From: an uncultured Chloroflexia bacterium
GTDB lineage: Bacteria; Chloroflexota; Limnocylindria; QHBO01
NCBI GenBank assembly: GCA_963699235.1
Contig: OY969424.1
Span: 1,850,964 to 1,914,963 of the forward strand
DNA: 64,000 nt
Reading direction: 5' to 3'
Made by a program: the position numbers and the translations under genes. The notes under the pieces were generated by a model. The model made no database searches. It was not told where the DNA came from and saw only the letters and a program-made list of their open reading frames with translations. Positions 16,063 through 57,106 of the stretch are shown piece after piece (the stretch's first letter is position 1; every line of letters begins with the position of its first letter).

Positions 16063-17268
16063 TCACAGCAGCTCGAAGTAGGCTTCAGCCAGCACGCGGT
16101 AGTCGTGGTGGCGAAGGACGAATGCCCGACCTCGCTCACCCATGCTGCGCAGCTCACTCGCAGGTCGACCGCTGAGCTCGAGAGCGGCACGGGCAATCGA
16201 GTGCGAATCTTCGGCGGGAACCGTTACCCCGCACCGTGCCCGCTCCACTTCTGACGATGGGACGTCAGCGGCCAGCAGGACAGGGCGCCCGGCATACATG
16301 TAGTCAAAGAGCTTGTTGGGCGAGACCCCATACCGGTAGAGAGGAGATCGGAGAAAGCCGACGTAGCACAGGTCGAAGGTCCGGATGATGTCGAAGACTT
16401 CTCCATGGGAGACCGCGCTTCGGAAGGTCACGTTCGCGAGTCCTGCCGATCGCCGCTTCAGTTCCGACTCGGCCGGCCCTCTGCCGCAGAGCACGAAATG
16501 AACGTCGGCGTTTTCGCGCAGCAGGTGGGCCGAGTCGATCAGCGCCGCCAGGCCGTTGGCGTCGCTCAGCGTTCCCATGTACCCCACCACGAATCGTCGG
16601 TCCGAGACGGACGCTTCGACCGGGGCCTCGATCGCCTCCGGTCCGCGAGCTCCGTCGACGTTGATCCCGTTGGGGATGTGCCTGAACTTGCCTCGGGCCA
16701 GACCCTTCGACCGCATGTGACTCTCGGCGTGGGGCAGTACCGATACCGCGTAGTCGCAGGTCCGATAGGCAAATGTCTCACACAGCGCCATCAGCACGAT
16801 CAGGGGGTGCCATCTCCGTAGTCCGGCAAGCTCCTGCAGGGTCAGCGGCCAGATGTCCCTGACCTCGACGATGAACCGGGCACGATGCCGACGTGCGAGC
16901 AGGTACGCCATGGGCAGGATGAACGGCGATGGGGACGAGGCGACAATCGCGTCGGGCGCCGGCAAGTCCCTCGGGAGCCTCAGGAGTTGAACGACGAAGA
17001 CAAGCATGTTCAGGAACCGGCGGAAGCTATACGGGCTTCGATACGGCGGCACCCAGAGCCAGCGATACCGAACGCCATCGATGACCTCGGTGAAGCTCCG
17101 GCGACGGGCAGTCGGTTGCTTCTGGAATAGGTGGGAGAACGTGCCGGACACGACCGTAACGTCCACCCCCATTTCGCGAAGCCTCACCCCGAGCTGGTAG
17201 GGGCGGTACTGCATGCCATGTCGGGGCGAACCCGCGTATTGATTGACGAGCCAGACCGTCTTGCCCAT
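16063..17268 (-). CDS. Glycosyltransferase family 4 (WbuB-like)
   Basis: 401 aa. The N-terminus TVWLVNQYAGSPRHGMQYRPYQLG is characteristic of the WbuB-like GT4 subgroup. The C-terminal half has the GT-B fold. Confidence 0.85.
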   Translation of the reverse strand: MGKTVWLVNQYAGSPRHGMQYRPYQLGVRLREMGVDVTVVSGTFSHLFQKQPTARRRSFTEVIDGVRYRWLWVPPYRSPYSFRRFLNMLVFVVQLLRLPRDLPAPDAIVASSPSPFILPMAYLLARRHRARFIVEVRDIWPLTLQELAGLRRWHPLIVLMALCETFAYRTCDYAVSVLPHAESHMRSKGLARGKFRHIPNGINVDGARGPEAIEAPVEASVSDRRFVVGYMGTLSDANGLAALIDSAHLLRENADVHFVLCGRGPAESELKRRSAGLANVTFRSAVSHGEVFDIIRTFDLCYVGFLRSPLYRYGVSPNKLFDYMYAGRPVLLAADVPSSEVERARCGVTVPAEDSHSIARAALELSGRPASELRSMGERGRAFVLRHHDYRVLAEAYFELL

Positions 17269-17603
17269 CAGCGCGCGGGTTTCGCCGCCAGGCAGGCGCC
17301 GGTGGCGGCGGTACCTGAAGCAGCCGGCGACAACAGGATGTCCTGCGCTCGGGCGGACTTACGGATCACGGCGCGAGCACATCACTGGAATATCATGCAC
17401 AACCCTCGGCGAATCCGCCCGAGACAGGCTGAGGTTCTAATCGAGGTGATTGGTCAGCAATGCCGACGAGGCGCCTTCCACGTTCATGGCATCGATCCGA
17501 TCCGCACACAACCTCCTGGAGCGCCGCAGGAATCGTTGCCATAGGCTCGCGCCCGCCTCGATCAGGGGTCTCCGCTGACTCTGCCCGCTTCACCTGATCA
17601 GAC

Positions 17604-18785
17604 ATGCCCGAAGATCTGCTCGCATTTGTAATGGGAGATTTTGACCTGCTGCGACCTCTCGTCCTGGCAGGGATCCGATGCGCGGTGCTGGCACCTCCTG
17701 GAGCGCCGATTCGCTTTTCCCGATACGTGGACGAAACCGTGACCTGGGACGGGGAGTGGAACGACAAGGCGTTGCTACCGCAGCTCCTCACTTTCGCGAA
17801 ACAGCTTCCCAGGAAGCCTGTCCTGTTCTACCAGCGCGACGAGGACCTGCTGTTCGTCAACCGGAATCGGGACGCACTGGCCAGCGCATTCGATTTCGTT
17901 CTGGCGCCCGATCAGCTGATCGCGATGCTCGTGGACAAGATCCAATTCGCCGTCGTGGCACGGAAGCTGCGGCTCCCCATCCCCGAGACCGCGGTGATCT
18001 CCCCTGCCGCGTCCGAGGTCCCGCGCCCTGGAGAGCTCGCGTTTCCCCTGGTCATCAAACCGGCGACTCGGCTCCACCACCGATGGCTTGCCCTGGAACC
18101 CGACCGCAAGGCTATTCCGATCCAGAACCTCCGGGAGCTCGCCGAATTGTGGGGTCGGCTCGCCTCATCCGGGGAACAGTTCATCGCGCAGGCAATGATT
18201 GCGGGGGGTGAAGAGGACGTGGAGAGCTACCACGTCTATGTGGACGCCGGCGGGTCGGTCGCGGGTGAGTTCACCGGTCGCAAGCTTCGGACCCGCCCCG
18301 AGCACTACGGCCACACAACCGCGCTGGAGATCACGGACGCTGACGACGTCCGATCCGTCGGCCGGGACGTCGTGGAGCAACTTGGCCTGACGGGAGTGGC
18401 GAAGGTCGATTTCAAACGGGGCCCTCGCGGCGATTTGTATCTGTTCGAGGTGAACCCTCGCTTCAACCTGTGGCACCACCCCGGTGCTGTCGCCGGGGTC
18501 AACCTGCCCGCAACCGTCTTCGCTGATGTCGTTGGAATCCCCCGCGCGAAGGGCACGGCCGCGCGCGCCGGGGTCGCGTGGGTGCGCGCCGAGGATCTGC
18601 TCGCCGCCAGGGACCGTGGATTGCCGCTGATTCCTTGGCTCAGGTGGGCTGCTCGGTGCGAGGCGAAAAAGGCATTTGCGTTGGATGACCCGTTGCCCAT
18701 CGCCGCGGGTGTCCTTCGACGCTCGCGGCGCGCGCTCCGCAGCACGCTCGCGTCGCGTCATCACCGCGGGCAGCCCCGTCACTAG
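17604..18785 (+). CDS. ATP-grasp domain protein (carboxylate-amine ligase type)
   Basis: FPLVIKPA, then ESYHVYVD, GVAKVDFKRGPRGDLYLFEVNPRFNLW (the ATP-grasp Mg/ATP loop). Confidence 0.8.
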   Translation: MPEDLLAFVMGDFDLLRPLVLAGIRCAVLAPPGAPIRFSRYVDETVTWDGEWNDKALLPQLLTFAKQLPRKPVLFYQRDEDLLFVNRNRDALASAFDFVLAPDQLIAMLVDKIQFAVVARKLRLPIPETAVISPAASEVPRPGELAFPLVIKPATRLHHRWLALEPDRKAIPIQNLRELAELWGRLASSGEQFIAQAMIAGGEEDVESYHVYVDAGGSVAGEFTGRKLRTRPEHYGHTTALEITDADDVRSVGRDVVEQLGLTGVAKVDFKRGPRGDLYLFEVNPRFNLWHHPGAVAGVNLPATVFADVVGIPRAKGTAARAGVAWVRAEDLLAARDRGLPLIPWLRWAARCEAKKAFALDDPLPIAAGVLRRSRRALRSTLASRHHRGQPRH

Positions 18786-18802
18786 GCCGATGAGCCACTC
18801 CG

Positions 18803-19771
18803 ATGAGTGATCCCGCCGAGGGAACAACGGACTTTGAGACTGCCCGAAACTCGCCGTTGCTCCTTGACGGGTGGCTCGAGTTCAATCGTCGCCGAGCTGG
18901 CGTGGAGCCGATCCGGTTCCGCACCGAGGTGCGCGGGTCCCCGGCGATCGAAACCGTGCTCTACGCAGATCGTCATGGGCGCCTGGTCTTACCGACATTG
19001 AATCCCTACCTCCCGGTTGCCTACGCTTCACCGCCTTCAACGAAGCCCCTCAGGATGCGACGGCACTGGCTGCGTGCCGCCGCGCCACTCGTCGCCGAGA
19101 TGCGCCGTCGAGGCCTGGCAGACAACCTGATCCTGTCGCCGAATGTCGCTGATGCCCGCCCCTGGCTATGGGCCGGGTTCCGCGCCACCGTCGGGTACAC
19201 GGTCCTCAACCGTCTCCCGCCGGATGCAACCGACTTCGACAGCGACGCCACCCGTCGAGTTCGGATGGCCATGGGAAACGGGTATCGGTGGACGAGTCGG
19301 GGCGACGTCGGTGACGTGCTCGCTTGCCTGGCAGCCACGGAATCAAGGAAGGGCTTTCAGTACCACCTCGGAGAGGAAGATCTCAGCTGGTTGGTGGCGA
19401 GCCTCGGGCCCGATGTGGCCCGGACCTACGTCTGCTACGCGCCGACCGGGGACGCGGCCAGCGCCGCGGTGGTCCTCCATCGCCCGCTCGGGCTGGCCAT
19501 CCTCCTTGTTGGCGGGACCCGTCCGGAGTACTTCAAAGAGGGGGCAGCCCAGTTCCTCGTGCACGAGATGCTGCAGGATCTCTCGGATGCCGGAGCCTCG
19601 GGCGTCGACCTCGCGGGCGCTGATCTCCCGGGCGTGGCGCTCTGGAAGGAAGCGTGGGGCGGGCGCCTCCTGCCGGTCTTTCACGTCGAACCGTATACCA
19701 TTCGCAATGGACTACGCTGGGGTCGCGACTGGCTCCGGCAGTTGAGGAATGTGCCCAGCCGGGACGAATAG
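18803..19771 (+). CDS. FemAB-like / GNAT-fold acyl(aminoacyl)transferase (Acetyltransf_6-like)
   Basis: 322 aa. The C-terminal part AQFLVHEMLQDLSDAGASGVDLAGADLPGVALWKEAWGG resembles the FDxgG...FKxxxG end of FemAB-like GNAT domains. This assignment is from memory of the family, not from a search. Confidence 0.5.
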   Translation: MSDPAEGTTDFETARNSPLLLDGWLEFNRRRAGVEPIRFRTEVRGSPAIETVLYADRHGRLVLPTLNPYLPVAYASPPSTKPLRMRRHWLRAAAPLVAEMRRRGLADNLILSPNVADARPWLWAGFRATVGYTVLNRLPPDATDFDSDATRRVRMAMGNGYRWTSRGDVGDVLACLAATESRKGFQYHLGEEDLSWLVASLGPDVARTYVCYAPTGDAASAAVVLHRPLGLAILLVGGTRPEYFKEGAAQFLVHEMLQDLSDAGASGVDLAGADLPGVALWKEAWGGRLLPVFHVEPYTIRNGLRWGRDWLRQLRNVPSRDE

Positions 19772-19861
19772 CGCCGGCCTTCGGTAGGGATGGTGTGTGG
19801 GCGCCCGCCGTACCCCGCCCAAGCGTGTGACCGCTTCCGAGGATTCGAGGAGATTCGCCAG

Positions 19862-20743
19862 GTGGACGTTCAGAAATCACTCCAGGTCGTCCGACGATGG
19901 ATCGTCGTCATCCTGGCGACGGGCATCGTGGCCGCCACGGCGGCGTACATTGCGACGGGGTTCCTCCCGGGAAATTACGAGGGCCGCGCGACACTGCTGG
20001 TCGGACAAAGCCTTGAGTCGGGCCAGCTCGACTACGACCAGATTCTCGCGGCCCAACTTCAAGCCCAGACGTATGCGGCCATCGCCACTGACCGCTCGGT
20101 CCTGGAGACGACCATCGAGACCCTTGGTCTCGATATGACACCGGAACAGCTGGCTCGTCAGACCGAGGCCAGTGCCGCCTCCGGCAGTCGATTCGTAACC
20201 ATCCTCGCAACCGATGGCGACCCGAATCGCGCTGCCGATATCGCGAACGGAATCGCCGAACATGTGATCGCGCTCACCGCGGCCGACACCACCGACGAGA
20301 TCCTCGCGGCCATACGACTTGAACTCGCCGCTACCGAGGCTGAGGTTGCCTCCGTCGAGGCCGATCTCGAGTTTCTTGCGCAGGAATCCCCGAGCGCCGA
20401 CGTCATCGAGCGAAGGAGTGAACTCACCACCCAGCTTCTGACGCTGCGCTCCATTCGCGCACAACTCCTGGCGGAGGCGGCAGAGGGGTCCACGAGTCCA
20501 CTGGCCATCGTCAGCCGCGCGGCGCCCAGCGCCGAGCCGGCCGGTCCCCGTCCGATCTTGAATGCGTTGCTCGCTGCCGTGGTCGGAATCATCGCGGCGA
20601 CGGCCATCGTCTTCGTCATTGATCGGCAGGTGCCTGCCACCGTGCCGCCAGCCCCGACTCCGCGCGCCAAGGGCAGTCGCAAGTCGCCCGCGGCGCTGGC
20701 GAAGGCCGAACAATCTCAGGCTGGCGAGATCCCGCCCCCGTGA
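19862..20743 (+). CDS. Wzz-like polysaccharide chain-length determinant (no kinase domain)
   Basis: GTG at 19862, preceded by GAGGAG about 10 nt upstream. It has an N-terminal TM (RRWIVVILATGIVAATAAYIATGF), a long coiled/periplasmic-type segment, a second TM (LNALLAAVVGIIAATAIVFVI) and a short tail. Confidence 0.7.
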   Translation: MDVQKSLQVVRRWIVVILATGIVAATAAYIATGFLPGNYEGRATLLVGQSLESGQLDYDQILAAQLQAQTYAAIATDRSVLETTIETLGLDMTPEQLARQTEASAASGSRFVTILATDGDPNRAADIANGIAEHVIALTAADTTDEILAAIRLELAATEAEVASVEADLEFLAQESPSADVIERRSELTTQLLTLRSIRAQLLAEAAEGSTSPLAIVSRAAPSAEPAGPRPILNALLAAVVGIIAATAIVFVIDRQVPATVPPAPTPRAKGSRKSPAALAKAEQSQAGEIPPP

Positions 20744-21954
20744 CGGGGAAGTCGGTCGTACGCCGAGGTGAGGACGACTGACTCCGTCTCCCAGTTCCAG
20801 CGCCGTGCCGCGGCCCGACAGCGTGCCTTCAATGCCTCACGTTCGGGCGCTGACAGGCTCAGGATGCGTCGGAGGGCCTTCGCGATCGCACGAGGATCGG
20901 TCGGATCGCAGACCTCGCCGATCGGCCCGGAGTCACCGGTCAGCACTATGCCAGCCATCGCAGGGAAGTCACTGGTCACCACCGGCACGCCGGCGGCAAT
21001 TGCCTCGAAGAGCTTGTTTGGAGTGGAGAGATACCCGTTGAGCGTATCTGGCTGAATCGGCATTACCGCGATGTCAGAGGACGCGACCCAGGGCAGGAGA
21101 CTCGCGGGAGGAACGGCCTCAAGGACGTGGACCCGCCCGCCGTTCGCTGGGTCCGCCGCCGCCAGATCGAGCTCCCCTCGCAACTCGCCGTATCCGAGAA
21201 ATACGGCGTGCACATCCTCCAGCCCGTCGTCCTGAAGGGCGTGAATGATCTGTCGCAGCCCGCGCAGAGGCGCGAAGATGCCGTGATAGAGGACCACCGG
21301 CTCGGAGGCGGGGATGCCCGCGGCCGCACGGATGAGGTCGTATGTCCGATTCCCGGAGTCCCACCGCGGCGCACAGTTGTGGACGACCTGGACGTCCCCC
21401 ACGCCATACCGATGGCGCAGCTCCGTCGCCAATGCCTCGTTCACGGTGATGACGGCGGACGACCGATGCAGCGCCCAGCGCTCGATGCGTCGGATCAGCG
21501 CCCGGGCGAATCCCGGCAGTCGCGCCCATTCCCCGGGCTGTTCCAGGTGAAGCTCATGGACGTCGTAGACAAAGCGCGACCGCGTCATCCACGGAAGAAC
21601 CGCGAACATGCCCGTGAAATCGTGGATGTGCCAAACGTCCACCCCCGTCCCGGCCGACCGGTGGACGCGCCAACCCCAGACCACGACGTTGGCCACATAG
21701 AAGAGCATCCATCGAGCGCGCCGCAACGCCATGGGGAATCGGCCAGGGGATCGGCTCCATCGCGTCCCGGGCGCCCCTCCGGAAATCGGCGCGGCGATGG
21801 GAACCACGCGACTATTCCCGGGTAACTGAGTCTGCGTTTGGGTCTCGTTGGCCGGCGGAAGACAGAAGAGGGTCACCACGTGACCGTTGGCGGCCAGGGT
21901 AGTGGCCTCTCGTTGCACCCGGCTGTCGTGCGATACATCCCCGTACAGCACCAT
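20716..21954 (-). CDS. Glycosyltransferase family 4
   Basis: GT-B/GT4 pattern including TPNKLFEAIAAGVPVV (E-x7-E region). I prefer the ATG at 21954 (MVLYGDVSHDSRV). The track start at 22098 would overlap the upstream gene by 109 nt. Confidence 0.8.
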   Translation of the reverse strand: MVLYGDVSHDSRVQREATTLAANGHVVTLFCLPPANETQTQTQLPGNSRVVPIAAPISGGAPGTRWSRSPGRFPMALRRARWMLFYVANVVVWGWRVHRSAGTGVDVWHIHDFTGMFAVLPWMTRSRFVYDVHELHLEQPGEWARLPGFARALIRRIERWALHRSSAVITVNEALATELRHRYGVGDVQVVHNCAPRWDSGNRTYDLIRAAAGIPASEPVVLYHGIFAPLRGLRQIIHALQDDGLEDVHAVFLGYGELRGELDLAAADPANGGRVHVLEAVPPASLLPWVASSDIAVMPIQPDTLNGYLSTPNKLFEAIAAGVPVVTSDFPAMAGIVLTGDSGPIGEVCDPTDPRAIAKALRRILSLSAPEREALKARCRAAARRWNWETESVVLTSAYDRLPRHGGGISPA

Positions 21955-21989
21955 GGCAATCGTCAGCCCTTGCCGAGCCCGAGCCTGGT

Positions 21990-23393
21990 TCAGCTGACGA
22001 GCTCCTCGACGAGTTCGCTGTACGAGAGCCGCTCCTGTCGCGACGCGAGTGAACTGTTGTGCCAGAGCATGACAAAGCTCCCGCCGAACCGCCGACATTG
22101 ATCTGCGATCTCAGCCGCGGCGAGGATCGCCTGGTCGGGCGAGAGCTTCCAGTAATAGGAGAGGGTCGCGTCCATCACGAGCAACGGCTGCTCGATGAGG
22201 CCGATCTCCTGGCGACCGATGAGGTCGTATGTCGAGAACGGCCGCCCCGTCCCCGCCCGAAACCCCGTGTGTTGCCCAAAGCCGACCGTGCTGTCGAAAT
22301 GGAGGCCGGCACCGGCCGCACTGGACCACGCCGCGGGTGTCCAGCGCAGAAAGTGATGGCGCACACCCCACCGTGATTGCACGACACCCAGTCTTCGGCA
22401 TACCGCCAGCAGTGCCTCGAACTCGGCTGACAGCCGGGCCGGATCCTGATTCGCTCCGTAGGTGGCATGCAGGCCGATCTCGTGGCCGCGGCGCTGGATG
22501 GACTGGATGAGCAGTCCGATCCACTCGTCGTCCAACGTGTATTGCCCTTCGAGCGGGCCGCCCCCATCTCGTGCGAGGAAATTGAAAGTGGCGCTCAGAT
22601 TGTGGCGCTCAGCAACGTCCATCAAAAAGCCGAAACGGTTCCATGGATCTTGACCCTTCGGCAGGATCCGTGCCCAGCTTGCCGCGCGACGAAAGGCAAG
22701 AGTGGGCTCCTTCCGCTTCACGATATCGGCGCCCGCCGATCGCAGGAGCGCGCGCAGTCCGGGAGCCCAGCGTGCCAGGGGCGTATCCACGTCATGCGAC
22801 AGGACAACCTGGTATTCCCATTGCCGCAACTCTGCGCGCGGCCAGAGGCGATGGATGGCTGCGGCGAGCAGTTCCGCGTATGCGTCCGCCAGAGGGAACT
22901 TCAGGAATCCGGCCCGGTGCGCGACGGACGCCTCGTGAGGAAATCGCCCGTGGTCATCGAGCTCCGCCTCAGTCGCCAGCTCCTCGTAGCGCGAGATGAG
23001 AAAGAAGAGGCCCCCGAGCAGGTCGACCGAGAACCGAATCTGGGTCGCCGAGGGATCGATGGTGTCCAGGACGGTGGCGGCCTCGCCAAAGAGGACCGGC
23101 ACGAGGGTGTCACGTGGCAGGGCCTGCGAATGCGACTCGGCGACCGGCCTCCACTCGAGCGGGAGCGTCGGGACGGTGGTGGACTCGAGCCAAGCCGTGC
23201 TCGCGCCGCGAAAGAACGTATCCGGCAGCCGGATTCCAGCCCCCATCGGATCCCCATGGGCTCGAATCAGGATGTCCGAGCGGTCCGTTGGGTGCCAGTC
23301 CCACTCGAGTCCCATCCACTCCGAGAGGACAACGCGCAGAACGTATTCGCGCTCTGATGAGCAACCACCCGGGGACTCGACCAGCAATCGCAT
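21990..23393 (-). CDS. Polysaccharide deacetylase-like (CE4-type) protein with an N-terminal accessory domain
   Basis: 467 aa. VVLSHDVDTP and HEIGLHATY resemble the CE4 metal-binding motifs, followed by ...MLWHNSS. Confidence 0.65.
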   Translation of the reverse strand: MRLLVESPGGCSSEREYVLRVVLSEWMGLEWDWHPTDRSDILIRAHGDPMGAGIRLPDTFFRGASTAWLESTTVPTLPLEWRPVAESHSQALPRDTLVPVLFGEAATVLDTIDPSATQIRFSVDLLGGLFFLISRYEELATEAELDDHGRFPHEASVAHRAGFLKFPLADAYAELLAAAIHRLWPRAELRQWEYQVVLSHDVDTPLARWAPGLRALLRSAGADIVKRKEPTLAFRRAASWARILPKGQDPWNRFGFLMDVAERHNLSATFNFLARDGGGPLEGQYTLDDEWIGLLIQSIQRRGHEIGLHATYGANQDPARLSAEFEALLAVCRRLGVVQSRWGVRHHFLRWTPAAWSSAAGAGLHFDSTVGFGQHTGFRAGTGRPFSTYDLIGRQEIGLIEQPLLVMDATLSYYWKLSPDQAILAAAEIADQCRRFGGSFVMLWHNSSLASRQERLSYSELVEELVS

Positions 23394-37089: not shown

Positions 37090-37125
37090 GGGCGGAGAAA
37101 TCTATACGATGACGCGGTGACCGTC

Positions 37126-39060: not shown

Positions 39061-39062
39061 GC

Positions 39063-40403: not shown

Positions 40404-40673
40404 TCGCGGCCGTCGGGAAAGGGGCTCGGGGGCGTGGGCATGACGGCCATTGTTACGGCAGCAGCGCCCCCTGTCACATCGCCCCACCGAAGCGGCGGTG
40501 TCAGCCGGAGCCTGGGCAATCGGTGACAGCGTGCACCGGACCTGCCTCCCGGGTGCGCTGGCCCCATCGTCATGGCTCGATGGGGCCCGAACCCCCGGGG
40601 ACCATCGACCGATGGGCTTTCCATGAACCGGCGGTCAGTCTGGCGGCAACCCCCCAACGGAAGGATGCGCCCT

Positions 40674-49359: not shown

Positions 49360-50298
49360 TCATGCGACGCTGCGGGCGTCCGGGCGGGGCGTGGCAGCCG
49401 GCAACCAGCGGGAGAGATCGCGTCCCAGCAGCTCGCCGAGGCGCTGGACTTCGGGCGCAAGCTCGGTCGTGAGCCGTTCGCGGACCGAGCGGTCCAGCGG
49501 CGGCCGCTCGTAGGGGCGGCTGTTGGCGGACAGCACCTTCGCCCGCAGCTGATGGGCCAGCGGGGCGCGGCGGAGGAGGGGAATGAAGCGGGCCAGCGGG
49601 GCGGGCGGGCGTACGACGAACGACTGCAGGGAGGAGTTGACCGGGCGCTTGGACTCGTTCACGCGTTCGAAGGATGGCCGAAAACCGTCGTCCACGCCAA
49701 GGAACCGCACGACCTCGAGGTAGGCGGCTTCCGGATCGCGGATGAAGTCGTCGAACAGGAGGATCTTCACCCGATCAGGGCCGAACTCGGCCAGGTAACG
49801 CTCGACCTGGTCGGCGAACCGGACCGTGTCGCGATAGAACAGGGCCTCGGGGCGGCGCGTTGGGCCGAGGCGTCGTCCCGCACGTCGATCGGGCTCGGCC
49901 GCCAGGGCATCCTCGAAGTCGTCCAGCTCTTCGCCGCCGTAGAAGACGAGCTCGCCGTGGAGCGAGTACATCACGTCCACCGGGTTCCGCAGCATGATGA
50001 TGATCTGGGCATCTGGCGAGAACTCGTGGATCTCGCGCGGCGCATCGGTCGAGTACAGGTACCAGGTGCTCGCCTCGCCGACGCGCTGACCTGGCTTCGC
50101 CGGGCGGAAGAGCCGCAGGTAGTCCGCCTCGGTCAGGCGGCCGTGGATGGTGGCCAGGTCGGCGCCGAAGTACATCGGCTCCTTGTGCTCGGGCATGAAC
50201 ACGTCCGGGTGGCGCCGAAGGTACTCGTACATCGCCGTCGTTCCACAGCGTGGGGCGCCGACGATGAAGAAATCGGGCCGCGGCTCGATCCCACCCAT
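49360..50298 (-). CDS. Sulfotransferase (Sulfotransfer_1-like, heparan-sulfate-sulfotransferase-type fold)
   Basis: From the ATG at 50298: PDFFIVGAPRCGTTAMYEYLRRHPDVFMPEHKEPMYF (5'-PSB loop) and IIIMLRNPVDVMYSLH (3'-PB). It is unrelated in sequence to the sulfotransferase at 38146-39060. Confidence 0.85.
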   Translation of the reverse strand: MGGIEPRPDFFIVGAPRCGTTAMYEYLRRHPDVFMPEHKEPMYFGADLATIHGRLTEADYLRLFRPAKPGQRVGEASTWYLYSTDAPREIHEFSPDAQIIIMLRNPVDVMYSLHGELVFYGGEELDDFEDALAAEPDRRAGRRLGPTRRPEALFYRDTVRFADQVERYLAEFGPDRVKILLFDDFIRDPEAAYLEVVRFLGVDDGFRPSFERVNESKRPVNSSLQSFVVRPPAPLARFIPLLRRAPLAHQLRAKVLSANSRPYERPPLDRSVRERLTTELAPEVQRLGELLGRDLSRWLPAATPRPDARSVA

Positions 50299-51302
50299 CA
50301 ATCCACCTCCGCGAACAGGATGCGAGATCCGTGCGCCTCGAAGCGGACGGGGATGCTGCTCAAGTCCGGCAGGGCGTCGAGAACCCGGTTCCGGGCTTCG
50401 CCTTCGGCCAGGAACATGAGGAAGCCGCCGCCGCCGGCGCCGCACAGCTTGCCGCCTATGGCTCCCGCGCCCATTCCGGAGGCATACCACGCATCGATCT
50501 CCTCGGTGGAGATGGCGCTTGCGAGGCCGCGCTTGAGCTGCCAGCCAGCATCGAGGATGGCTCCGAAGCGCGCGAAGTCCGGCTCCGGCGTAGCCATGAG
50601 CGCCTGCAACTCGTAGGCCTGGTCACGCATCCGGTCCAGCACGTCTCGGTGCTCCGGCGTTCGCTCCCGCTGCTCGACCAGCACCGAGCTGGCGCGGCGC
50701 TGGTGCCCGCTCCAGAGCATGAGCAGCCGGTCGAACAGGTGATCGACCGACCCGTTCACCCCGCGGTGCGGATGTACGGTCACGTCGCCACCCGGGCGGA
50801 AGGCAAACAGGTTGAGGCCGCCGAAGGCGGCGGCGTACTGGTCCTGCTTCCCGACAGGCTGGGCGAGCATCTCGATCTCGACCGTCGACGCCTCATCGGC
50901 CAGTTGAGAGGGAGTGACACGTTCGCCCTGGAATGTGTGGAGGGCGTTGAGCAGGCCAACGGCGAAGGCGCTCGAGCCTCCCAGGCCCGAGGAGTCGGGA
51001 AGGTCGCTGACCACGCTGACGTAGATCGGTGGCTCGATCTCCAGCAGCCGGAGGCACTCGCGGGCAACGTCGTTGCGGATGGCATCGATGGAGCTGACCG
51101 ACTCGCTGACCGAGTAGTTGAGTCGGACCTTCTCGTCGAAGACCTCGCCGTGGCGCTTGACGGTCACGTAGACGTACTTGTCGATGGTGGTACTGAACAC
51201 CGCGCCGTGGTCGACGTCGTAGTGGGCGGACAGGTCGGTCCCACCCCCCGCGAAGCTGACCCGGAGCGGAGTCCGGCTCATGACGATCCCCCGCCCGCTC
51301 AT
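50298..51302 (-). CDS. hddA: GHMP-family sugar kinase, D-glycero-alpha-D-manno-heptose-7-phosphate kinase type
   Basis: SRTPLRVSFAGGGTD, the GHMP motif LPDSSGLGGSSAFAVG, VGKQDQYAAAFGG and GGKLCGAGGGGFLMF. There is an alternative start at 51281. Confidence 0.8.
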   Translation of the reverse strand: MSGRGIVMSRTPLRVSFAGGGTDLSAHYDVDHGAVFSTTIDKYVYVTVKRHGEVFDEKVRLNYSVSESVSSIDAIRNDVARECLRLLEIEPPIYVSVVSDLPDSSGLGGSSAFAVGLLNALHTFQGERVTPSQLADEASTVEIEMLAQPVGKQDQYAAAFGGLNLFAFRPGGDVTVHPHRGVNGSVDHLFDRLLMLWSGHQRRASSVLVEQRERTPEHRDVLDRMRDQAYELQALMATPEPDFARFGAILDAGWQLKRGLASAISTEEIDAWYASGMGAGAIGGKLCGAGGGGFLMFLAEGEARNRVLDALPDLSSIPVRFEAHGSRILFAEVD

Positions 51303-52351
51303 CAGGCGGTCATCCCCTCACCGACGCGCCATCGGAGCGCTTCGTCGAGCGTGCCCTCCTCGATGAGCCTGGCGAGACGCTTGAGTCGGGTGTATCGGTC
51401 GCTGGTGAAGGCCTCGTACGTCAGGCCCAGTTGGCGGAAGGTCGAGGCCAGCTCGACGGCACCACGCTCGGCGTTGTGCTCAAAGGTGAAGCCCGGGAAG
51501 GTCCGCCCGAACTTCGCGAAGCTGGTCTGGTAGGTCCGCTGGTCGGCGTCGGGCACGGCCCGGATCTCGAGGGTGGCCTCCGGCACGGCGCGCTGGACAG
51601 CCTGGGCGAGGTCGCGGACCTGCTGGTTGAGCTCGTCGGCACCGACGTTGAACGCCTGGTTGTGGATGGCGTCGGCTGGCGCGTCGAGGGCGGCGAGGAA
51701 GGCCCGCGCCACGTCGTGGACGTGGACGAGCGGGCGCCACGGCGTGCCGTCGCTCATCACCGTGATGGTGCCGTTGGTGACGGCCATCCCGGTGAGGTTG
51801 TTCAAGACGGTGTCGAACCTCATCCGCGGCGAGACGCCGAAGATCGTGCCGTTGCGCAGGAAGATCGGCGAGAAGGTAGGCGTCGCCAGGGTGGCGATGG
51901 CGCGCTCGGCGACGACCTTGGAGCGGGCGTACTCGGTCTGGGGATCGAGTGGCGAGTCCTCATCCACGGCTCCCCCCTCGGCCATCCCGTACATGATGCA
52001 GGAGGAGGAGAACAGGAACCGCTCCACGCCCGCGTCACGGGCCAGCTCGGCGAGGCGGACCGTTGCGTCCACGTTGATGTCCGCCGTCCAGGCCGCGTTC
52101 AGGTTGCCGATCGGGTCGTTGCTGAGCGCTGCGAGGTGGACGACGGCGTCGAAGCCGCGCAGGTCGTCGGCCGTGACGTCACGGACGTCCCGCTCGATCG
52201 ACGGGATGTCGGCAAGCGGCATGAGGTCGCAGCCCCGGAAGAAGTCGACGTCCAGGCCGACCACGTCGTGGCCGGCATCGCGGAAGGCGGGCGCCATGAC
52301 TGCCCCCACGTAGCCGCGATGGCCGGTCATGAGGACCCGGCGGGCGGTCAT
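51302..52351 (-). CDS. NAD-dependent NDP-sugar epimerase/dehydratase (extended SDR)
   Basis: From the ATG at 52351 (ATGA overlap): RVLMTGHRGYVGAVM (a GxxGxxG variant), and YARSK (YxxxK). Confidence 0.85.
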   Translation of the reverse strand: MTARRVLMTGHRGYVGAVMAPAFRDAGHDVVGLDVDFFRGCDLMPLADIPSIERDVRDVTADDLRGFDAVVHLAALSNDPIGNLNAAWTADINVDATVRLAELARDAGVERFLFSSSCIMYGMAEGGAVDEDSPLDPQTEYARSKVVAERAIATLATPTFSPIFLRNGTIFGVSPRMRFDTVLNNLTGMAVTNGTITVMSDGTPWRPLVHVHDVARAFLAALDAPADAIHNQAFNVGADELNQQVRDLAQAVQRAVPEATLEIRAVPDADQRTYQTSFAKFGRTFPGFTFEHNAERGAVELASTFRQLGLTYEAFTSDRYTRLKRLARLIEEGTLDEALRWRVGEGMTA

Positions 52352-53565
52352 CGGGACACCCCCGCCGCCGCGGCGCTCGTCAGCTCGCGAGCGTGGAACA
52401 GGAGGCTGGCCGTGTCGTGGACCGCGCGGTAGGGCGCGCCGGCAGCGAACGCGGCCTGGCCGTCCCGCTCGTCGTCGCCGATGAACGGTGTCCGGCTGAG
52501 GTCGAGCTGAAACTCGTGTTGGGCGTCGAACAGCATCCCCGGGCTGGGCTTGCGACAGGCGCATCCCGCCTCCCAGTCGTGGGGGCAGTGATAGATGGCA
52601 TCGATCTGCCCGCCGGCGTCGGCTGCCTCGCGGACCATGCGCTCGTGGACGGCGGCCAGGTCCGCCTCGGTCATGACCCCGCGGCCGATGCCGGCCTGGT
52701 TCGAGACGACCACCACCCGGTAGCCCGCGTCGTGGAACAGGCGGAGGGCCTCGAGGCTGCCGTCGAGCCAGCGGAAGTCGGACGGGGTCCGCACGTACTC
52801 CGCCTGCGGCGGACGCTCGTTCAGGACGCCGTCGCGATCCAGGATCACGGTGGGCCGACGGGCCAGGAATTCCTCGGTCAGGGGCAGACGGTGCATGGAC
52901 CCGACACTGTAGTAGCGATGCTCGGAAACGTGCGCGCCGAGCCTCCGGTTGGCCGTCAGCCGCGGGTAGAGCGCCTCTTCCACCAGCTCGTCGCCATCGG
53001 GCGGCAGCAGGCTGAGGACCGGCTTGGGCAGGATGGCGTAGCTGATCTCGACGCCGGCCAGGTTCGCCGTGGTCCGGCTCCGGTCGTAGGCCTCGAGGAG
53101 CCCGTCAGGCCCCGTCCGGGTGTTGCTCCGGGAGTAGCCGTCGGAGTTGGCGTAGATGGTGACCATGGCCGGCGCGCCGACCCGCAGGTAGTGATCCCAC
53201 AGCCGCTCCATGTCGAGCGGCCAGTAGATGTCGCAGTACAGCAGCAGGAAGAGCGGGTCGAGGCGGTCCTCGACGACCTGGAGCCGGCGTGCGGTGAGGT
53301 CGTCGGGGTCCGTCACCGAGTAGTCGATCCGGATCCCGAATCGCGAGCCGTCCCCGAAGTGGTCCTGGATTACCTCGGGCAGGTAGCCGAGGAGCATGAG
53401 GACGCGCTCGAAGCCCTGCTCGGCCAGAAGCTCGACCGTGTACTCGAGGAACGGCCGGCCGTGGAACTCGATCATCGGCTTGGGACGGTCGTCGGTCAGC
53501 GGCCGCATGCGCGTGCCTCGACCGCCGGCGAGGATGACCGCCTGCCGGGGGCGCTCAGGGGACAT
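52348..53565 (-). CDS. Bifunctional fusion: sugar-1-phosphate nucleotidyltransferase (HddC-like) plus D,D-heptose-1,7-bisphosphate phosphatase (GmhB, HAD)
   Basis: The N-terminal half has AVILAGGRGTRMRPLTDDRPKPMIEF. The C-terminal half has VILDRDGVLNE (HAD motif I), VVSNQAGIGRG, and the GmhB zinc motif HCPHDWEAGCACRKPSPGML. Confidence 0.8.
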   Translation of the reverse strand: MSPERPRQAVILAGGRGTRMRPLTDDRPKPMIEFHGRPFLEYTVELLAEQGFERVLMLLGYLPEVIQDHFGDGSRFGIRIDYSVTDPDDLTARRLQVVEDRLDPLFLLLYCDIYWPLDMERLWDHYLRVGAPAMVTIYANSDGYSRSNTRTGPDGLLEAYDRSRTTANLAGVEISYAILPKPVLSLLPPDGDELVEEALYPRLTANRRLGAHVSEHRYYSVGSMHRLPLTEEFLARRPTVILDRDGVLNERPPQAEYVRTPSDFRWLDGSLEALRLFHDAGYRVVVVSNQAGIGRGVMTEADLAAVHERMVREAADAGGQIDAIYHCPHDWEAGCACRKPSPGMLFDAQHEFQLDLSRTPFIGDDERDGQAAFAAGAPYRAVHDTASLLFHARELTSAAAAGVSR

Positions 53566-53571
53566 GGCGGC

Positions 53572-54342
53572 CTAGCTGGTGGTGGTCGCGGCGGTCTGGT
53601 GGACGGCGAGCCTGGCGGTGATCATGTCCGCGACGGCGGAATGCGCCGTTTCCACCAGCCCGTACTCCCCGTGCCGGGTGGGCAGCCAGACGGCGACGTC
53701 GAGGAGGGCCAGGGCGGCTCCACCGTCGAAGCCGAGCAGCCCCATGGTGTGCAGGCCGGAGGACTTGGCCAGCTCGATCGCGCGCAGGATGTTGGGCGAG
53801 TTCCCGCTGGCGGAGATGACGATCAGGACGTCCCCCTCACGCGCCAGGTTCTCCAGCTGGCCGGCGAACACCCGGTCGTATCCCTCGTCGTTGGCCAGGG
53901 CGGTGAGCCAGGGGATGTTGTCGGTCAGGTTCATCACACGCATCGGCGGCTGGTCGGCGCGACGGGTTGCCTTGGCCAGATCGTTGACCCAGTGGGCCGC
54001 GGTGGCGGAGCTTCCCCCATTGCCGGCGATGAAGATCGTCGCGCCCCGGAGCCGGGCGGCTTCCAGCACCGTCGCCATCAGGTCGACGGCCTGTCGATCG
54101 AGTGTCGCCAGCAGCAGGTTCAGACGCTCAACATAGTCGCTCGCCCAGAGGCCGGACGATCCGTTTCCGTTCTCGCCGTTGTGAGCATCGGTCCCATCGG
54201 CGATGACATAGGCGAAACCGTTCGTCTCGCCGATCGCGGCGGTACCGGCGACGGCGAGCGGCGGGTACGCGTTGCCATCGGTCTCGCCGTTGCCGTCGCT
54301 CCCGTTGTGGCCGTTGCCGTTCGTGAGCGGGCTGGCGACCAT
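53572..54342 (-). CDS. gmhA: Phosphoheptose isomerase (SIS domain, 53572-54135) with an Asn/Gly/Asp-rich N-terminal extension; its frame stays open upstream into the GT2 remnant
   Basis: IFIAGNGGSSATAAHWVNDL and VISASGNSPNILRAIE are GmhA signatures. The nearest in-frame ATG is at 54342 (MVASPLTNGNGHNGSDGNGETDGN...). No stop separates it from the GT2 C-terminal segment (track ORF to 54570). Confidence 0.7.
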   Translation of the reverse strand: MVASPLTNGNGHNGSDGNGETDGNAYPPLAVAGTAAIGETNGFAYVIADGTDAHNGENGNGSSGLWASDYVERLNLLLATLDRQAVDLMATVLEAARLRGATIFIAGNGGSSATAAHWVNDLAKATRRADQPPMRVMNLTDNIPWLTALANDEGYDRVFAGQLENLAREGDVLIVISASGNSPNILRAIELAKSSGLHTMGLLGFDGGAALALLDVAVWLPTRHGEYGLVETAHSAVADMITARLAVHQTAATTTS

Positions 54343-54429
54343 CGCCACCGGGTGCAGCTCGGTCCGGGCACGACCGTTGCTCGCGGCGGCAGCGGCGGCC
54401 GTAACCACGGCGGCCTCCGACAGCGGCCG

Positions 54430-55100
54430 ACGTCGCTCGCGGAAGATCGCCCGCAGTACCCGCCAGCCGTCGGGAATGGTTCGGAGGCGACCGATGCCCA
54501 TGACCCGGCGGTCCTCGAAGCTGGGGACCTCCTGGACACGGAGGCCGGCGCGCAGGGCCCGGATGTTCATCTCGGTCTCGATCTCGAAGCCATCGCCATT
54601 CAGGGCGAGGACCGGCAGGTGACGGCGCCAGAAGGCGTTGTAGCCGTAGCACAGGTCGGTGTAGCGCCCGCCGTAGAAGCATGCGGACGAGGCGGACGAA
54701 GGTGGCGTTGCCCAGGCGGCGGTGGATGGGCATGTCGCTGGTGCCGGCGCCGTGAAGGAAGCGGGACCCCTTGGCGAAGTCTGCCCCGGCCAGGAGCGCG
54801 TTGACGAACATCGGGATCTCGGCGGGATCGGTCGAGCCGTCGGCGTCGAGCATCACGATGATGTCGCCGGTGGCGGCCGCGAATCCGGAGCGCAGGGCCG
54901 CGCCCTTGCCGGTGCCCTCCTGCTGAACGATGCGGATCGTCGGAATCAGCTCACGGGCGACTTCGGCGGTGCGATCCACGGAGGCGCCGTCGACCAGGAT
55001 GACCTCGTCCACGCTGGCTCGGCACCCGCGGCAGGACGTGGGGGAGGTTCAGCTCTTCGTTGAGAGCGGGAATGATGACGCTGACCGTAACGCGTGACAT
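54430..55100 (-). pseudogene. GT2 (polyprenol-phosphate-sugar-synthase-like) gene carrying two frameshifts; the last segment runs on into gmhA
   Basis: Segment 1 starts at the ATG at 55100 (SD AAGGTGG): MSRVTVSVIIPALNEELNLPHVLPRVPS. Segment 2 begins after a shift near 55013-55016: VDEVILVDGASVDRTAEVA...IIVMLDADGSTDP...FVRLVRML. Segment 3 begins after a shift near 54676-54682: YGGRYTDLCYGYNAFWRRHLP...GFEIETEMNIRALRAGLRVQEVPSFEDRR. The three segments lie in three different frames. Confidence 0.6.
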
Positions 55101-55396
55101 GCTCACCACCTTGGCTCAATCGGTGCAGCACGCTTCCGGGACGGTCTCGGCCGTCGATCCGAGGATGCCGGACCGACGCACCAGCGGTGCGTGAAACAAC
55201 CTACGGGATGATTCATAGGATAACCGGGCGACTGATTTGGGCGAAATCCGGGGAAAAATGAGGACCTCGTCAGCCTAGGAGCAAAGTCCTAGCGGGTCAA
55301 GGCATTCTCCGCCCAATGGCACCGAACGCGTTGCCACATGGCACCATTCGCCCGTGAATCGCCCCCGAAGGGGCCGCCAAAGGTCCCCCCGAAGCC

Positions 55397-55933
55397 CTAG
55401 GACGTGGGTTTCGAGTACCCCCGCTCCTCCAACGCCTGGAGCACCTTGAGCGCGCTCTCCTCCGGCGTTTCCCGGCCATCGGTGTGGCACACGACCTCTG
55501 GCTCAAGGGGCGGCTCGTAGGGGTCGCTGACCCCGGTGAAGCCGGTGATCTCGCCGGCCAGGGCCTTCTTGTAGAGCCCCTTCACGTCCCGCTCGGCGAG
55601 GACGGCGATGGGTGCCTCGACGTAGACCTCGACGAAGCTGCCGATGGTGGCCCGGACTTCGTCGCGGACCTCGCGATAGGGGCTGATCGCCGCAGCGATG
55701 GCGATGACGTCGTTCCGGGTCAGGACCTCGCACACCCAGCCGATGCGCCGGATGTTCGTGTCGCGGTCCTCCTTCGAGAACCCGAGGCCCTTCGACAGGT
55801 GAGTCCGGACGACGTCGCCGTCGAGGACCTCGACCTTGTGGCCCCGTCGCCGCAGCTCGGCCTCGACGAGGTCCGCGATCGTCGTCTTGCCCGCTCCTGA
55901 CAGGCCGGTGAACCAGACCGTGCAGCCGGTCAT
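55397..55933 (-). CDS. cysC: Adenylylsulfate (APS) kinase
   Basis: From the ATG at 55933 (ATGA overlap with sat): [15 protein letters not shown] (P-loop), [21 protein letters not shown] and [11 protein letters not shown]. Confidence 0.9.
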
Positions 55934-57106
55934 CGGGTCACCGCCGCCGAGCGGTAGGCGTCGATCAGGACCTGGGCCACCTCGGGTCGGCTGAACTCCG
56001 GTGGCGGCATCTCGCCGGCGGTGAGCATTTCGCGCACCCTCGTGCCCGACAGGATGAGCCGCTCCGTGTCCGGATGGGGGCAGGTCTTGGAGGACGCCAT
56101 CCCCTCGCAGGCACGGCACCAGAACGAGTGCTCGAAGAACAGCGGCATGATGCCGAGCTCATCGGGCCCGAACTCATCGAAGATCAGGTGGGCGTCGTAC
56201 GAGCCGTAGAAGCTCCCGACCCCGGCGTGGTCTCGACCGACGATGAAGTGGGTGCAGCCATAGTTCTTGCGGGCGATGGCATGGAAGACGGCCTCCCGCG
56301 GCCCGCCGTAGCGCATCGCGGCGGGGTAGACGGCGAGGAGGGTCCGGTCGGCTGGGTAGTAGTTCGCGAGCAGGGCCTCGTACGCCTGCATCCGAACTTC
56401 CGGCGGCGTGTCGTCGGACTTCGTCTCGCCCACGAGCGGATGGATGAGCAGGCCGTCCACGATCTCGAGGGCGGCCTTGGTCAGGTACTCGTGCGCCCGG
56501 TGGATCGGGTTTCGCGTCTGGAAGCCGACGACCCGGCGCCACTCGCGCTCGGCGATCTGGGCACGGGTCTGGGTCGGGGTCAGCCGACGGGCGGCGAACG
56601 GAGGATCGAGCGGCAGCTCGAGGACGTGGACGTCGCCGCCGAGGTGGATCTCCCCGGCATCCCGAATCCGGGCGACGGCCGGGTGGCTGTCGTCGGTCGT
56701 CCGGAATACCTGCTCGGCCTCGGACTTCCTTGTCATACGCATAGACGTCGGCCAGGTCGAGGATGCCCACGGTCCGGCCGGTTTCATCGGTGAGCGCCAC
56801 CGACGAACCGATCTGCAGCCGATCCGCTTCCTCGCGGGTCGTCGAGAGGGTCACCGGGATGGACCACGGCAGCCCGGAGGCGAGGCGCATGTCCTTCACC
56901 ACCGATGCGTAGTCGTCCTGGGTCAGGAACCCGGTGAGCGGGCTGAAGGCGCCGGTGCCGATGAGCTCGAGGTCCGAGAGCTCGACCGCGCCGAGGCGCA
57001 GCTGGGGCATGGATGGGACCCGATCGAGGGCGGCGTCGCGGTCGGCTCCGACCAGGACGCGGTCGATGAGCGAGCCACCGTGGGGGGGAATGAGGGCGTG
57101 CGTCAA
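55930..57106 (-). pseudogene. sat: Sulfate adenylyltransferase (ATP sulfurylase), split by one frameshift near 56722-56737 (or a sequencing indel)
   Basis: The N-terminal part lies in the frame of track ORF 56174-57385, with a likely TTG start at 57106: LTHALIPPHGGSLIDRVL...[10 protein letters not shown]. The C-terminal part lies in the frame of ORF 55930-56787: [17 protein letters not shown]...[15 protein letters not shown]...[12 protein letters not shown]. Together they make a normal ~390-aa Sat. Confidence 0.75.

Follow-up and report, generated by a model that had tools for sequence, protein, structure and literature searches.

A conserved, likely sulfated glycoconjugate locus beside CWB2-bearing surface proteins in an uncultured Limnocylindria bacterium

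The window analyzed here is a stretch of 64,000 nucleotides from an uncultured Chloroflexia bacterium from soil, of the class Limnocylindria (Chloroflexota), and the subject is the group of glycan, sulfation and surface-protein genes in its interval 16063-57106. The original prediction described this interval as one 40-kb super-locus, in which a complete Wzx/Wzy-type system makes a sulfated heptoglycan that could be the wall ligand of two proteins with CWB2 repeats. With a probability of about 0.6, the interval is instead explained by three juxtaposed units: a recently acquired, strain-variable Wzx/Wzy-type island inserted between cysS and lhgO (block A), a glycoconjugate locus of about 26 kb that is conserved across the class (block B), and a set of sulfate genes (block C). 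The Wzx/Wzy part of the proposed super-locus then falls to the island, and only the 26 kb or so of block B are conserved as one block. Block B is likely a sulfated glycoconjugate locus. Its gene content and synteny were read directly, and each biochemical step assigned to it below is a reading of homology.

Limnocylindria are uncultured bacteria that are common in soil and freshwater. The search with ST1, one of the two sulfotransferases of block B, returned 2736 homologs, and those with a named source came from Candidatus Limnocylindria, with the exception of one Aeromicrobium. The homologs of the CWB2 proteins with a source name were mostly from Candidatus Limnocylindria bacterium, and the closest genomic loci belong to metagenome-assembled genomes (MAGs) of Limnocylindria or of "uncultured Chloroflexia". 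The class averages about 2.4 Mb and 69% GC (PMC10608941). Genes were called by the GC content of third codon positions (GC3); raw lists of open reading frames (ORFs) are swamped by spurious frames at the 63-73% GC of the window. Every called gene was scanned against Pfam and NCBIfam. The term cut-off refers below to the curated equivalog score for NCBIfam and to the gathering score for Pfam. For synteny, window proteins were mapped by tblastn onto 18 related loci (L numbers), and precomputed gene tables were used in addition.

Block B has a recurrent gene order: HddA, ST1, unk440, GT2b, GT4c, GT2a, DRL/SAF, RmlC, (LPNTA protein), (GH16-like), beta-helix, ST3, Rce1-like, unk94, unk626, unk134, aldo/keto reductase (AKR), where ST stands for sulfotransferases, GT for glycosyltransferases and unk for conserved proteins without annotation. 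This order was found in L001/L004, L002, L003, L007, L013, L017 and several short contigs, with protein identities of 45-86%. The part made of ST1, unk440, GT2b, GT4c, GT2a, DRL/SAF, RmlC, beta-helix and ST3 is present in L001/L004, L002, L003 and L017. L007 keeps the order from ST1 to ST3 with an extra beta-helix ORF before ST3, and fragments of it are seen in L005, L006 and L009. Both sulfotransferases and the same glycosyltransferases stand in fixed order in eight independent relatives, and the sulfation of a glycan, as proposed originally, is plausible. Single genes of the block are also widely kept. ST3 orthologs occur in L002, L004 (two copies), L005, L006 and L007, and AKR orthologs, 68-80% identical, hold the same position in L004, L007, L008, L009, L013 and L016. 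The membrane proteins unk134 and unk626 were retained in L004, L007, L009, L013 and L016, the pair of unk94 and the Rce1-type protease in L002, L005, L007, L009 and L013, and the LPNTA protein in L002, L003, L007 and L017. The secreted beta-helix and GH16-like genes are kept in relatives as well. A metagenome scan seeded with AKR gave 5 short loci only. As minor observations, the extra secreted beta-helix protein of L007 (11494-13023) carries a Pro/Thr-rich linker, and the second ST3 copy of L004 (13342-14241) flanks AKR.

The two sulfotransferases were confirmed by family matches above the gathering scores. ST1 (49360-50298, minus strand) belongs to the Sulfotransfer_1/3 family (PF13469, 63.8 bits; PF00685, 52.3 bits), and ST3 (38146-39090, minus) to the Sulfotransfer_3 family (PF13469, 34 bits with a gathering score of 27). 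Both possess the two binding motifs (5'-PSB and 3'-PB) for 3'-phosphoadenosine 5'-phosphosulfate (PAPS), GAPRCGTT and RNPVDVMYS in ST1 and GTGRSGST and RDSRGVAFS in ST3. They have no transmembrane (TM) segment and no signal and are predicted to be cytoplasmic. Among the glycosyltransferases, GT2a (44802-45884, plus), GT4c (45821-46990, minus) and GT2b (46987-47967, minus) were assigned by Pfam and keep this order in all relatives. The best NCBIfam match of GT2b is haloarchaeal AglG (NF041394, glucosyl-dolichyl-phosphate glucuronosyltransferase), with 226.5 bits and an E-value of 4e-67 at a cut-off of 440. A further GT2, fused to the heptose enzyme GmhA, matches AglJ (TIGR04182) with 137.4 bits at a cut-off of 325, and the dolichyl-phosphate hexose transferase model with 85.7 bits. 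By their scores, the AglJ and AglG matches are a family resemblance, not orthology. This AglJ-like polyprenyl-phosphate GT2 is the sole primer candidate of the block. The first count of at least seven glycosyltransferases in the interval is lowered to six, the number supported by Pfam.

A second group of genes in block B concerns the sugar nucleotide. It includes an HddA-like GHMP kinase (50298-51302, minus), whose top NCBIfam match is HddA, and, by profile matches, an SDR epimerase/dehydratase (51302-52350, minus), a generic nucleotidyltransferase fused to a GmhB phosphatase (52348-53565, minus) and the AglJ-like GT2 fused to GmhA, a SIS isomerase (53572-55094, minus). The last gene is frameshifted in the window and is a single intact ORF of 533 aa in L017 (4992-6593), with a low-complexity N/G-rich linker. 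We know of no described glycosyltransferase::GmhA fusion. The four heptose activities cluster inside block B in the window, L001 and L017. The dedicated GDP-D,D-heptose pathway of the original prediction is seen here as an HddA-type NDP-heptose pathway with four predicted activities, whose scores are all below the equivalog cut-offs (GmhA 99 of 209, HddA 143 of 600, GmhB 170 of 178, HddC 61 of 300 and for the first 80 residues only). The module is also exchanged between relatives, with heptose genes in the window, L001 and L017 and RmlA/Rml-type genes in L002 and the P0281 contig.

On the other side of the block, an RmlC-type 3,5-epimerase (42964-43509, plus; TIGR01221, 153.2 bits with a cut-off of 155.75) is followed by a DRL/SAF oxidoreductase (43506-44805, plus), which is frameshifted, with its PF21135 match split over two frames. 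Together with the SDR, these enzymes parallel the remodelling of GDP-heptose in Campylobacter jejuni, which makes it probable that a modified heptose, and not plain D,D-heptose, is incorporated. In C. jejuni, the same four heptose activities are found, an SDR and an RmlC-type C3/C5 epimerase are adjacent, and the sequence of C4-dehydrogenase or C4,6-dehydratase, C3/C5-epimerase and C4-reductase resembles that of the SDR, RmlC-type and DRL/SAF enzymes (PMC10680097). The window departs from it in two gene fusions, of the nucleotidyltransferase with GmhB and of GmhA with a GT2, and in a putative reductase of the DRL/SAF type in place of an SDR.

The membrane proteins of block B are conserved. The 440-aa protein unk440 (47964-49286, minus), with 10-12 predicted TM segments, always stands between ST1 and GT2b and may, from this position, be an exporter or flippase. 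The 626-aa protein unk626 (35209-37089, minus) combines at least 11 predicted TM segments with a soluble C-terminal domain of some 130 aa, and its first predicted external loop carries conserved Asp residues; by inference only, it is a candidate GT-C-type transferase. Its neighbor unk134 (34808-35212, minus; 4-5 predicted TM segments) has no match in Pfam, NCBIfam or PDB. In hhalign comparisons, unk440 was unrelated to the two Wzx proteins of the window and unk626 unrelated to Wzy, so that unk440 is not called a flippase here, nor unk626 a polymerase. No similarity of unk626 to STT3/AglB/PglB, PglL or PMT was detected, and no gene matched STT3. Recognizable Wzx, Wzy, polysaccharide co-polymerase (PCP/Wzz), ABC exporter, synthase, phosphoglycosyl primer or LytR-CpsA-Psr (LCP) genes were not found in block B. 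The three flippases claimed for the interval are reduced accordingly: one is inside it, a second (7265-8551, minus; Polysacc_synt_3) lies outside, and the third, the 47964-49286 protein, fits no flippase model.

The remaining genes of the block code for secreted or membrane-bound proteins and the AKR. AKR (33643-34803, minus; PF00248, 135 bits) separates the surface-protein genes from the membrane-protein module. Unk94 (2 TM segments) and the Rce1/CPBP-type intramembrane protease (PF02517, 38 bits) share 37078-38108 on the plus strand. A right-handed beta-helix protein (39063-40487, minus; PF13229, 39.6 bits) is anchored in the membrane by an N-terminal TM segment, and a GH16-like protein (40572-41918, plus; PF00722, 24.9 bits) is secreted with a signal peptide. 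The LPNTA protein (42184-42903, plus) is a secreted protein of no known family with a sortase sorting signal, in which LPNTAMAP is followed by a hydrophobic stretch and RARRAR at the C-terminus. Covalent anchoring to peptidoglycan thus appears to exist for some proteins of these Chloroflexota too.

The surface proteins beside the glycan genes of block B are two secreted paralogs, encoded in tandem. The 699-aa protein (29435-31534, minus) has a signal, three CWB2 repeats, a Big_9 Ig-like domain, a TSP3-like calcium motif and a C-terminal domain. The 605-aa protein (31601-33418, minus) has the same elements except Big_9. As claimed originally, each possesses an N-terminal hydrophobic signal and exactly three CWB2 stretches (PF04122, 184.7 bits each). 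Identity between the two is 69% in the CWB2 module and 55% in the common 260-aa C-terminal domain. The motif P-[VL]-L-L, as PVLL or PLLL, occurs in 6/6 repeats; in Clostridioides difficile, the repeat motif P-[ILV]-[ILV]-[LV] is essential for anchoring (PMC4973711). The CWB2 modules are free of lysine, with net charges between -10 and -15. The architecture of the 699-aa protein is common to the orthologs P0127, P0131, P0275, P0277 and P0281.

The C-terminal domains (31604-32392 and 29438-30220, both minus) carry the motifs GFTGLMTN and GTGDQDNYxK and are preceded by the TSP3-like DxDxDG calcium motif. They have no Pfam model, and sequence and profile searches of PDB gave no match. AlphaFold2 modelling of residues 343-605 of the 605-aa protein with a 24-member alignment reached a pLDDT of 87.3 and a pTM of 0.88; a single-sequence run gave a pLDDT of 36.7 and was discarded. 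Foldseek ranked the beta-sandwich C-terminal domains of GH43 xylosidases first, followed by GH16, PL7 and legume lectins. The top (GH43) matches had TM-scores of 0.5-0.57, all matches listed had a probability of 1.00, and 244 had an E-value of 0.001 or below. According to this model, the domain has a concanavalin A (ConA)-like lectin/glucanase fold, with glycan binding or cleavage as candidate roles only. The designation "lectin-like" hence holds at the level of the fold. The domain contains several N-x-S/T sequons. It could be taken as rare from a word-index search, which gave 4 relatives; an exhaustive search found it in 433 representative clusters and ruled this out. Its hosts are mostly secreted multidomain proteins of 1000-3500 aa, also with Kelch, GSDH, BACON or Por_Secre_tail domains.

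The gene of the ConA-like protein adjoins AKR in the window, L007, L008, L013 (two paralogs, like the window), L016 and the P0274 contig (with L015). In total, 7/8 contexts of surface-protein orthologs adjoin block genes, one of them rearranged. On this P0281 contig, an ortholog with CWB2 and Big_9 is directly beside a rearranged module of RmlA-like, SDR, RmlC, DRL/SAF and GT2a genes. The association survives this rearrangement and is therefore more than inherited gene order. CWB2-bearing orthologs adjoin the block in L007, L013, the P0274 contig and the P0281 contig. The orthologous neighbor of L008 and L016, however, lacks CWB2 repeats, no such surface-protein gene is found within 8 kb of AKR in L004, and one homolog (48% identity) lies among housekeeping genes in L014, which weakens the CWB2 link. 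The synteny check thus upheld the adjacency of the surface-protein genes but not that of CWB2: block B is tied specifically to the ConA-like protein. Within the clade, triple CWB2 modules are fused to dozens of unrelated enzymes and other proteins, among them subtilases, amidases, LCP ligases, dehydrogenases, nucleases and LRR proteins, and at least one further CWB2 protein (P0308) is encoded elsewhere on the same chromosome. For these two reasons, CWB2 is a general wall anchor of these bacteria. Because of the CWB2-less orthologs, the fusions and the further copy, a CWB2 ligand as the product of block B is possible but has no specific support. The notion that the glycan anchors the two proteins is thus left without a specific tie. 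Their genes, which had seemed embedded in the middle of the locus, occupy one edge of the conserved block and owe their central appearance only to the 12-kb island inserted beside them.

This island, block A, starts with a GT4 gene (16063-17268, minus), an ATP-grasp gene (17604-18785, plus) and a FemAB-like GNAT gene (18803-19771, plus). A Wzz-like gene follows (19790-20743, plus), then a second GT4 (20716-22098, minus), a VimE-like deacetylase (21990-23393, minus), Wzx (23394-24674, minus), Wzy_C (24671-26113, minus) and an AsnB-type amidotransferase (26032-27966, minus). The assignments are from Pfam and NCBIfam, and Wzx is the only Pfam-supported flippase within the interval. GC and GC3 are 0.63-0.67 and 0.75-0.79 in the island, compared with 0.68-0.73 and 0.85-0.92 to its right. 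The close relative L016 (AKR 80%, cysS 78% and KAS 85% identical to the window) has the order unk626, unk134, AKR, surface protein, lhgO, cysS, NUDIX, KAS, FabD, M20. AKR, surface protein, lhgO and cysS are contiguous there, their products are 72-85% identical to those of the window, and the genes lhgO and cysS overlap by 4 nt, so that block A is absent. Because of this absence and the lower GC and GC3, block A is read as an insertion between cysS and lhgO. No tRNA, integrase or flanking direct repeats were found at its boundaries. The flanking gene lhgO (28200-29411, plus) is a housekeeping L-2-hydroxyglutarate oxidase gene (NF008726, 510.9 bits with a cut-off of 299); its earlier reading as a "DAO" glycan tailoring gene is ruled out by this match above the equivalog cut-off.

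The island also bears on the claim that everything needed for a Wzx/Wzy glycan is present. Wzy_C was found, but the Wzz-like protein scores 24.8 bits, under the gathering score of 25.5, with a weak NCBIfam PCP match of 55 bits. The predicted tailoring genes (deacetylase, amidotransferase, ATP-grasp and FemAB-like) all exist, but all in the island absent from L016. Between 16 and 58 kb, no called gene has a Bac_transf or WecA-type primer Pfam domain, and no scanned gene matches the LCP ligase family PF03816. When P0328 and P0341, two proteins with an LCP domain, were used as tblastn queries, the window matched them in its CWB2 regions only. The set is therefore short of a primer and of an LCP ligase among the called genes. 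P0328 and P0341 themselves are LCP wall-polymer ligases of relatives fused to triple CWB2 modules.

Block C comprises cysC (APS kinase; about 55397-55930, minus; PF01583, 204.5 bits), sat (ATP sulfurylase; 55930-57106, minus; PF01747, 320.9 bits), which is frameshifted with PUA_2 split over two frames, and an NrnA-like DHH/DHHA1 phosphoesterase gene (56934-58265, plus; PF01368 and PF02272) that extends beyond the interval. The latter is a candidate phosphatase of 3'-phosphoadenosine 5'-phosphate (pAp); it scores 77 bits against NF053633 (NrnA), with a cut-off of 350, and its true start is probably near 57240. All three genes of the predicted sulfate set are thus present by Pfam. As a unit, they were borne out in part. 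NrnA-like orthologs (53% identical) flank sulfotransferase clusters in L017 and the unrelated L018, which supports a pAp phosphatase dedicated to sulfation. The sat-cysC pair is not at the corresponding position in L001 or L017, and its adjacency is particular to this genome. L018 (Logan DRR655374 contig, 57599-78564) contains 3 sulfotransferases, nonulosonic-acid-type genes (NeuB/PglD/DegT), MBOAT, a flippase and the same NrnA-like DHH gene, which may mark sulfation loci generally within the group.

From these genes, a pathway can be proposed. A sugar derived from NDP-heptose would be remodelled by the SDR, the RmlC-type epimerase and the DRL/SAF oxidoreductase. Polyprenyl phosphate would be charged by the AglJ/DPM1-like GT2 fused to GmhA, and the chain extended at the cytoplasmic face by the AglG-like GT2, the GT4 and the other GT2. 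The two cytoplasmic PAPS-dependent sulfotransferases would add sulfate to the lipid-linked glycan, with PAPS made by Sat and CysC and pAp removed by the NrnA-like enzyme. Precedents for sulfation at the lipid stage and for GDP-heptose remodelling have been described (PMC8674786, PMC3892788, PMC10680097). Export and transfer might be accomplished by the conserved polytopic membrane proteins (440 aa; 626 aa and 134 aa), and the acceptor could be a surface protein, the wall or a lipid. At the surface, the secreted beta-helix, GH16-like and ConA-like proteins may act on the glycan or bind it, and the ConA-like proteins of this genome would be held on the wall by their triple CWB2 modules. Because block B has no polymerase, co-polymerase or LCP gene, decoration with an oligosaccharide fits better than a secondary wall polymer.

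Several observations weigh against the division into three units and the pathway. The insertion of the island rests on L016, the single relative that spans this junction. The matches of the heptose pathway, of AglJ and AglG and of NrnA are all under the equivalog cut-offs and do not extend to substrate or nucleotide specificity. Unk440 and unk626 are unmatched in Pfam (E<=1), NCBIfam (E<=0.01) and PDB, with E<=1-10 as the loosest thresholds. Finally, sat, DRL/SAF and GT2::GmhA are broken in this assembly, and the pathway would be defective here if the breaks were real. There are four single-base insertions relative to intact orthologs, in DRL/SAF (44358-44392), in GT2::GmhA (about 54680 and about 55013) and in sat (about 56730). 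That they are genuine and the pathway is decaying in this genome seems very unlikely to us. None of the insertions is in a long homopolymer, as decay would have it, and an exact look-up of the truncated DRL product found no called gene on record; DRL/SAF is an intact single ORF of 429-435 aa in L002 and L017. However, breaks of this kind are far more numerous in the otherwise conserved genes of sister long-read MAG loci (L001/L004, L007), the broken genes keep a GC3 of 0.85-0.92 throughout, and the other block genes are intact. Given the similarly broken sister loci and the undisturbed codon bias, the frameshifts are probably assembly errors.

Other explanations keep the genes functional and differ in the product. 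The integrated 40-kb Wzx/Wzy system, whose sulfated heptoglycan wall polymer would be the CWB2 ligand, is improbable, though three points speak for it: the proteins have three repeats with the P-[VL]-L-L motif, as required for binding of polysaccharide II (PSII) in C. difficile (PMC4973711), CWB2-bearing orthologs stand beside the block in four relatives, and conservation across the class would be expected of an essential wall ligand. Against it, Wzx, Wzy and Wzz sit in the island missing from L016, the conserved block has no recognizable polymerase, co-polymerase, primer or LCP ligase, and CWB2 is lacking in the L008 and L016 neighbors, while it is fused to numerous unrelated enzymes and present in at least one further protein of the genome. 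Moreover, relatives that swap the heptose module for the Rml one keep similar CWB2 modules, and the acidic, lysine-free character of these modules speaks, if only weakly, against their binding a polyanion by simple electrostatics. A sulfated exopolysaccharide or capsule that is released or held loosely at the cell, with the beta-helix and GH16-like proteins as trimming glycanases and the surface proteins as unrelated passengers, is also unlikely, if somewhat less so. Exopolysaccharide clusters with sulfotransferases are known for synechan (xss; PMC8205485) and predicted for Actinoplanes (wps-1; PMC13390465), and the two secreted genes are conserved inside the block. Yet the block contains no recognizable Wzy, PCP, ABC exporter or synthase, and the surface-protein gene stays with the block genes despite rearrangement. 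The most credible competitor, still doubtful, is that block B glycosylates surface proteins and that unk626, as a GT-C-like protein, moves a sulfated oligosaccharide onto the ConA-like or S-layer proteins. It agrees with AglJ (137 bits) and AglG (226 bits) as best NCBIfam matches of two core glycosyltransferases, the lack of Wzy and PCP in the block, the secreted-protein gene as conserved neighbor and the sequons in the ConA-like domain. It also agrees with the doubly sulfated, dolichyl-phosphate-linked tetrasaccharide of Halobacterium salinarum, the equal enzyme count (4 GT and 2 ST) and the Rml-type module of L002. Nevertheless, the scores are under the equivalog cut-offs, AglJ-like GT2s are generic polyprenyl-phosphate glycosyltransferases (ArnC and PpgS match too), and unk626 does not resemble STT3/AglB/PglB, PglL or PMT. 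The fullest version of this idea, in which Limnocylindria would have their own equivalent of the haloarchaeal pathway to sulfated S-layer glycans, we regard as unlikely. In it, a glycan of tetrasaccharide size with a heptose-derived sugar (rhamnose-like in some lineages) would be assembled on polyprenyl monophosphate by the AglJ-like GT2 fused to GmhA, the AglG-like GT2 and two other glycosyltransferases and sulfated twice in the cytoplasm, and then flipped and transferred by a new membrane-protein family (626 and 134 aa, 440 aa) onto the adjacent ConA-like, CWB2-anchored proteins.

Under the preferred three-unit reading, block B can be compared with several known systems. In the haloarchaeal Agl pathways (the Agl5-Agl15 "low-salt" tetrasaccharide of Haloferax volcanii; Hbt. 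salinarum), a short glycan is built on polyprenyl monophosphate by AglJ-type and AglG-type GT2s and further glycosyltransferases, as is proposed for block B. The tetrasaccharide of Hbt. salinarum carries two sulfates on dolichyl monophosphate, and its authors, judging by the intermediates of mutants, place sulfation probably after the tetrasaccharide has been completed on the lipid (PMC8674786). A lipid-linked, cytoplasmic stage of sulfation is also what block B suggests. A haloarchaeal cluster for such a sulfated glycan has Rml genes and a flippase, and AglB is not needed for its transfer. Shared traits are the dedicated sugar-nucleotide module (Rml-type in L002 and the P0281 contig), the associated surface-protein gene and, as a prediction for block B, a transferring enzyme that is not a classical oligosaccharyltransferase. 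In contrast, block B has a bacterial host, matches that stay under the cut-offs, sulfotransferases of the PF00685/PF13469 type, a heptose pathway joined by fusion to the putative priming GT2, and only candidates for flippase and transferase.

In C. difficile, too, a glycan locus adjoins genes for triple-CWB2 proteins with a PILL-like motif, the anionic polymer (AP) locus being immediately downstream of the cwp genes (PMC4973711). PSII is, however, a phosphodiester-linked polymer, and its locus has LCP ligases, an MviN-like flippase, an undecaprenyl diphosphate (UndPP) synthase and mannose genes, none of which are in the window locus. The conserved neighbor in the window is, in addition, defined by the ConA-like domain, not by CWB2. 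The clusters for synechan in Synechocystis 6803 (xss) and wps-1 in Actinoplanes missouriensis also combine two sulfotransferases of different subfamilies with glycosyltransferases, eight of them in xss (PMC8205485), and wps-1 has a glycoside hydrolase as well (PMC13390465). Both carry recognizable Wzx, Wzy and PCP, whereas the Limnocylindria block carries none and has a heptose pathway and unassigned membrane proteins.

Sulfated glycans are held to be rare in bacteria and essentially cyanobacterial (PMC8205485, PMC13390465). Sulfotransferase-bearing polysaccharide clusters have also been reported for some marine Gram-negative bacteria, and a metagenomic survey detected sulfotransferase genes in neither of its two Chloroflexi MAGs (PMC9723792). 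Our literature search found no report of sulfated glycan synthesis in Chloroflexota and none combining CWB2 with sulfotransferases. What is new here is the lineage, a set of conserved but unannotated protein families, the persistent association with ConA-like surface proteins, and the way in which a putative Agl-like lipid-linked assembly comes together with two sulfotransferases and with heptose genes fused to the putative priming GT2. The link to CWB2 is correspondingly narrowed to an association with a neighboring protein family and is not evidence on a ligand. Further work has concrete targets in both sulfotransferases, the fusion of GT2 with GmhA, unk626 and the ConA-like domain.

Some observations were made outside the three units. 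Beyond its two CWB2 paralogs, L013 (9728-18506) carries NTP_transf_5, ABC transporter, ScmC-like, transglutaminase-core and PqqD-like genes, reminiscent of ribosomally synthesized and post-translationally modified peptides, and a PMT-family GT-C. In the window, the cysS ORF (13979-16006, plus) has a false N-terminal extension of about 200 aa, which is the antisense of the NUDIX gene (13940-14533, minus); the true start is probably near 14560. To the left of the interval, window positions 1-8551 form a third glycan-related region with a GC of 0.64-0.69, which is not at the corresponding place in L016. Besides the second flippase, it contains a PglF/CapD-like dehydratase (1-1775, minus), a DegT aminotransferase (1950-3143, minus) and beta-helix proteins (5117-6754, plus).

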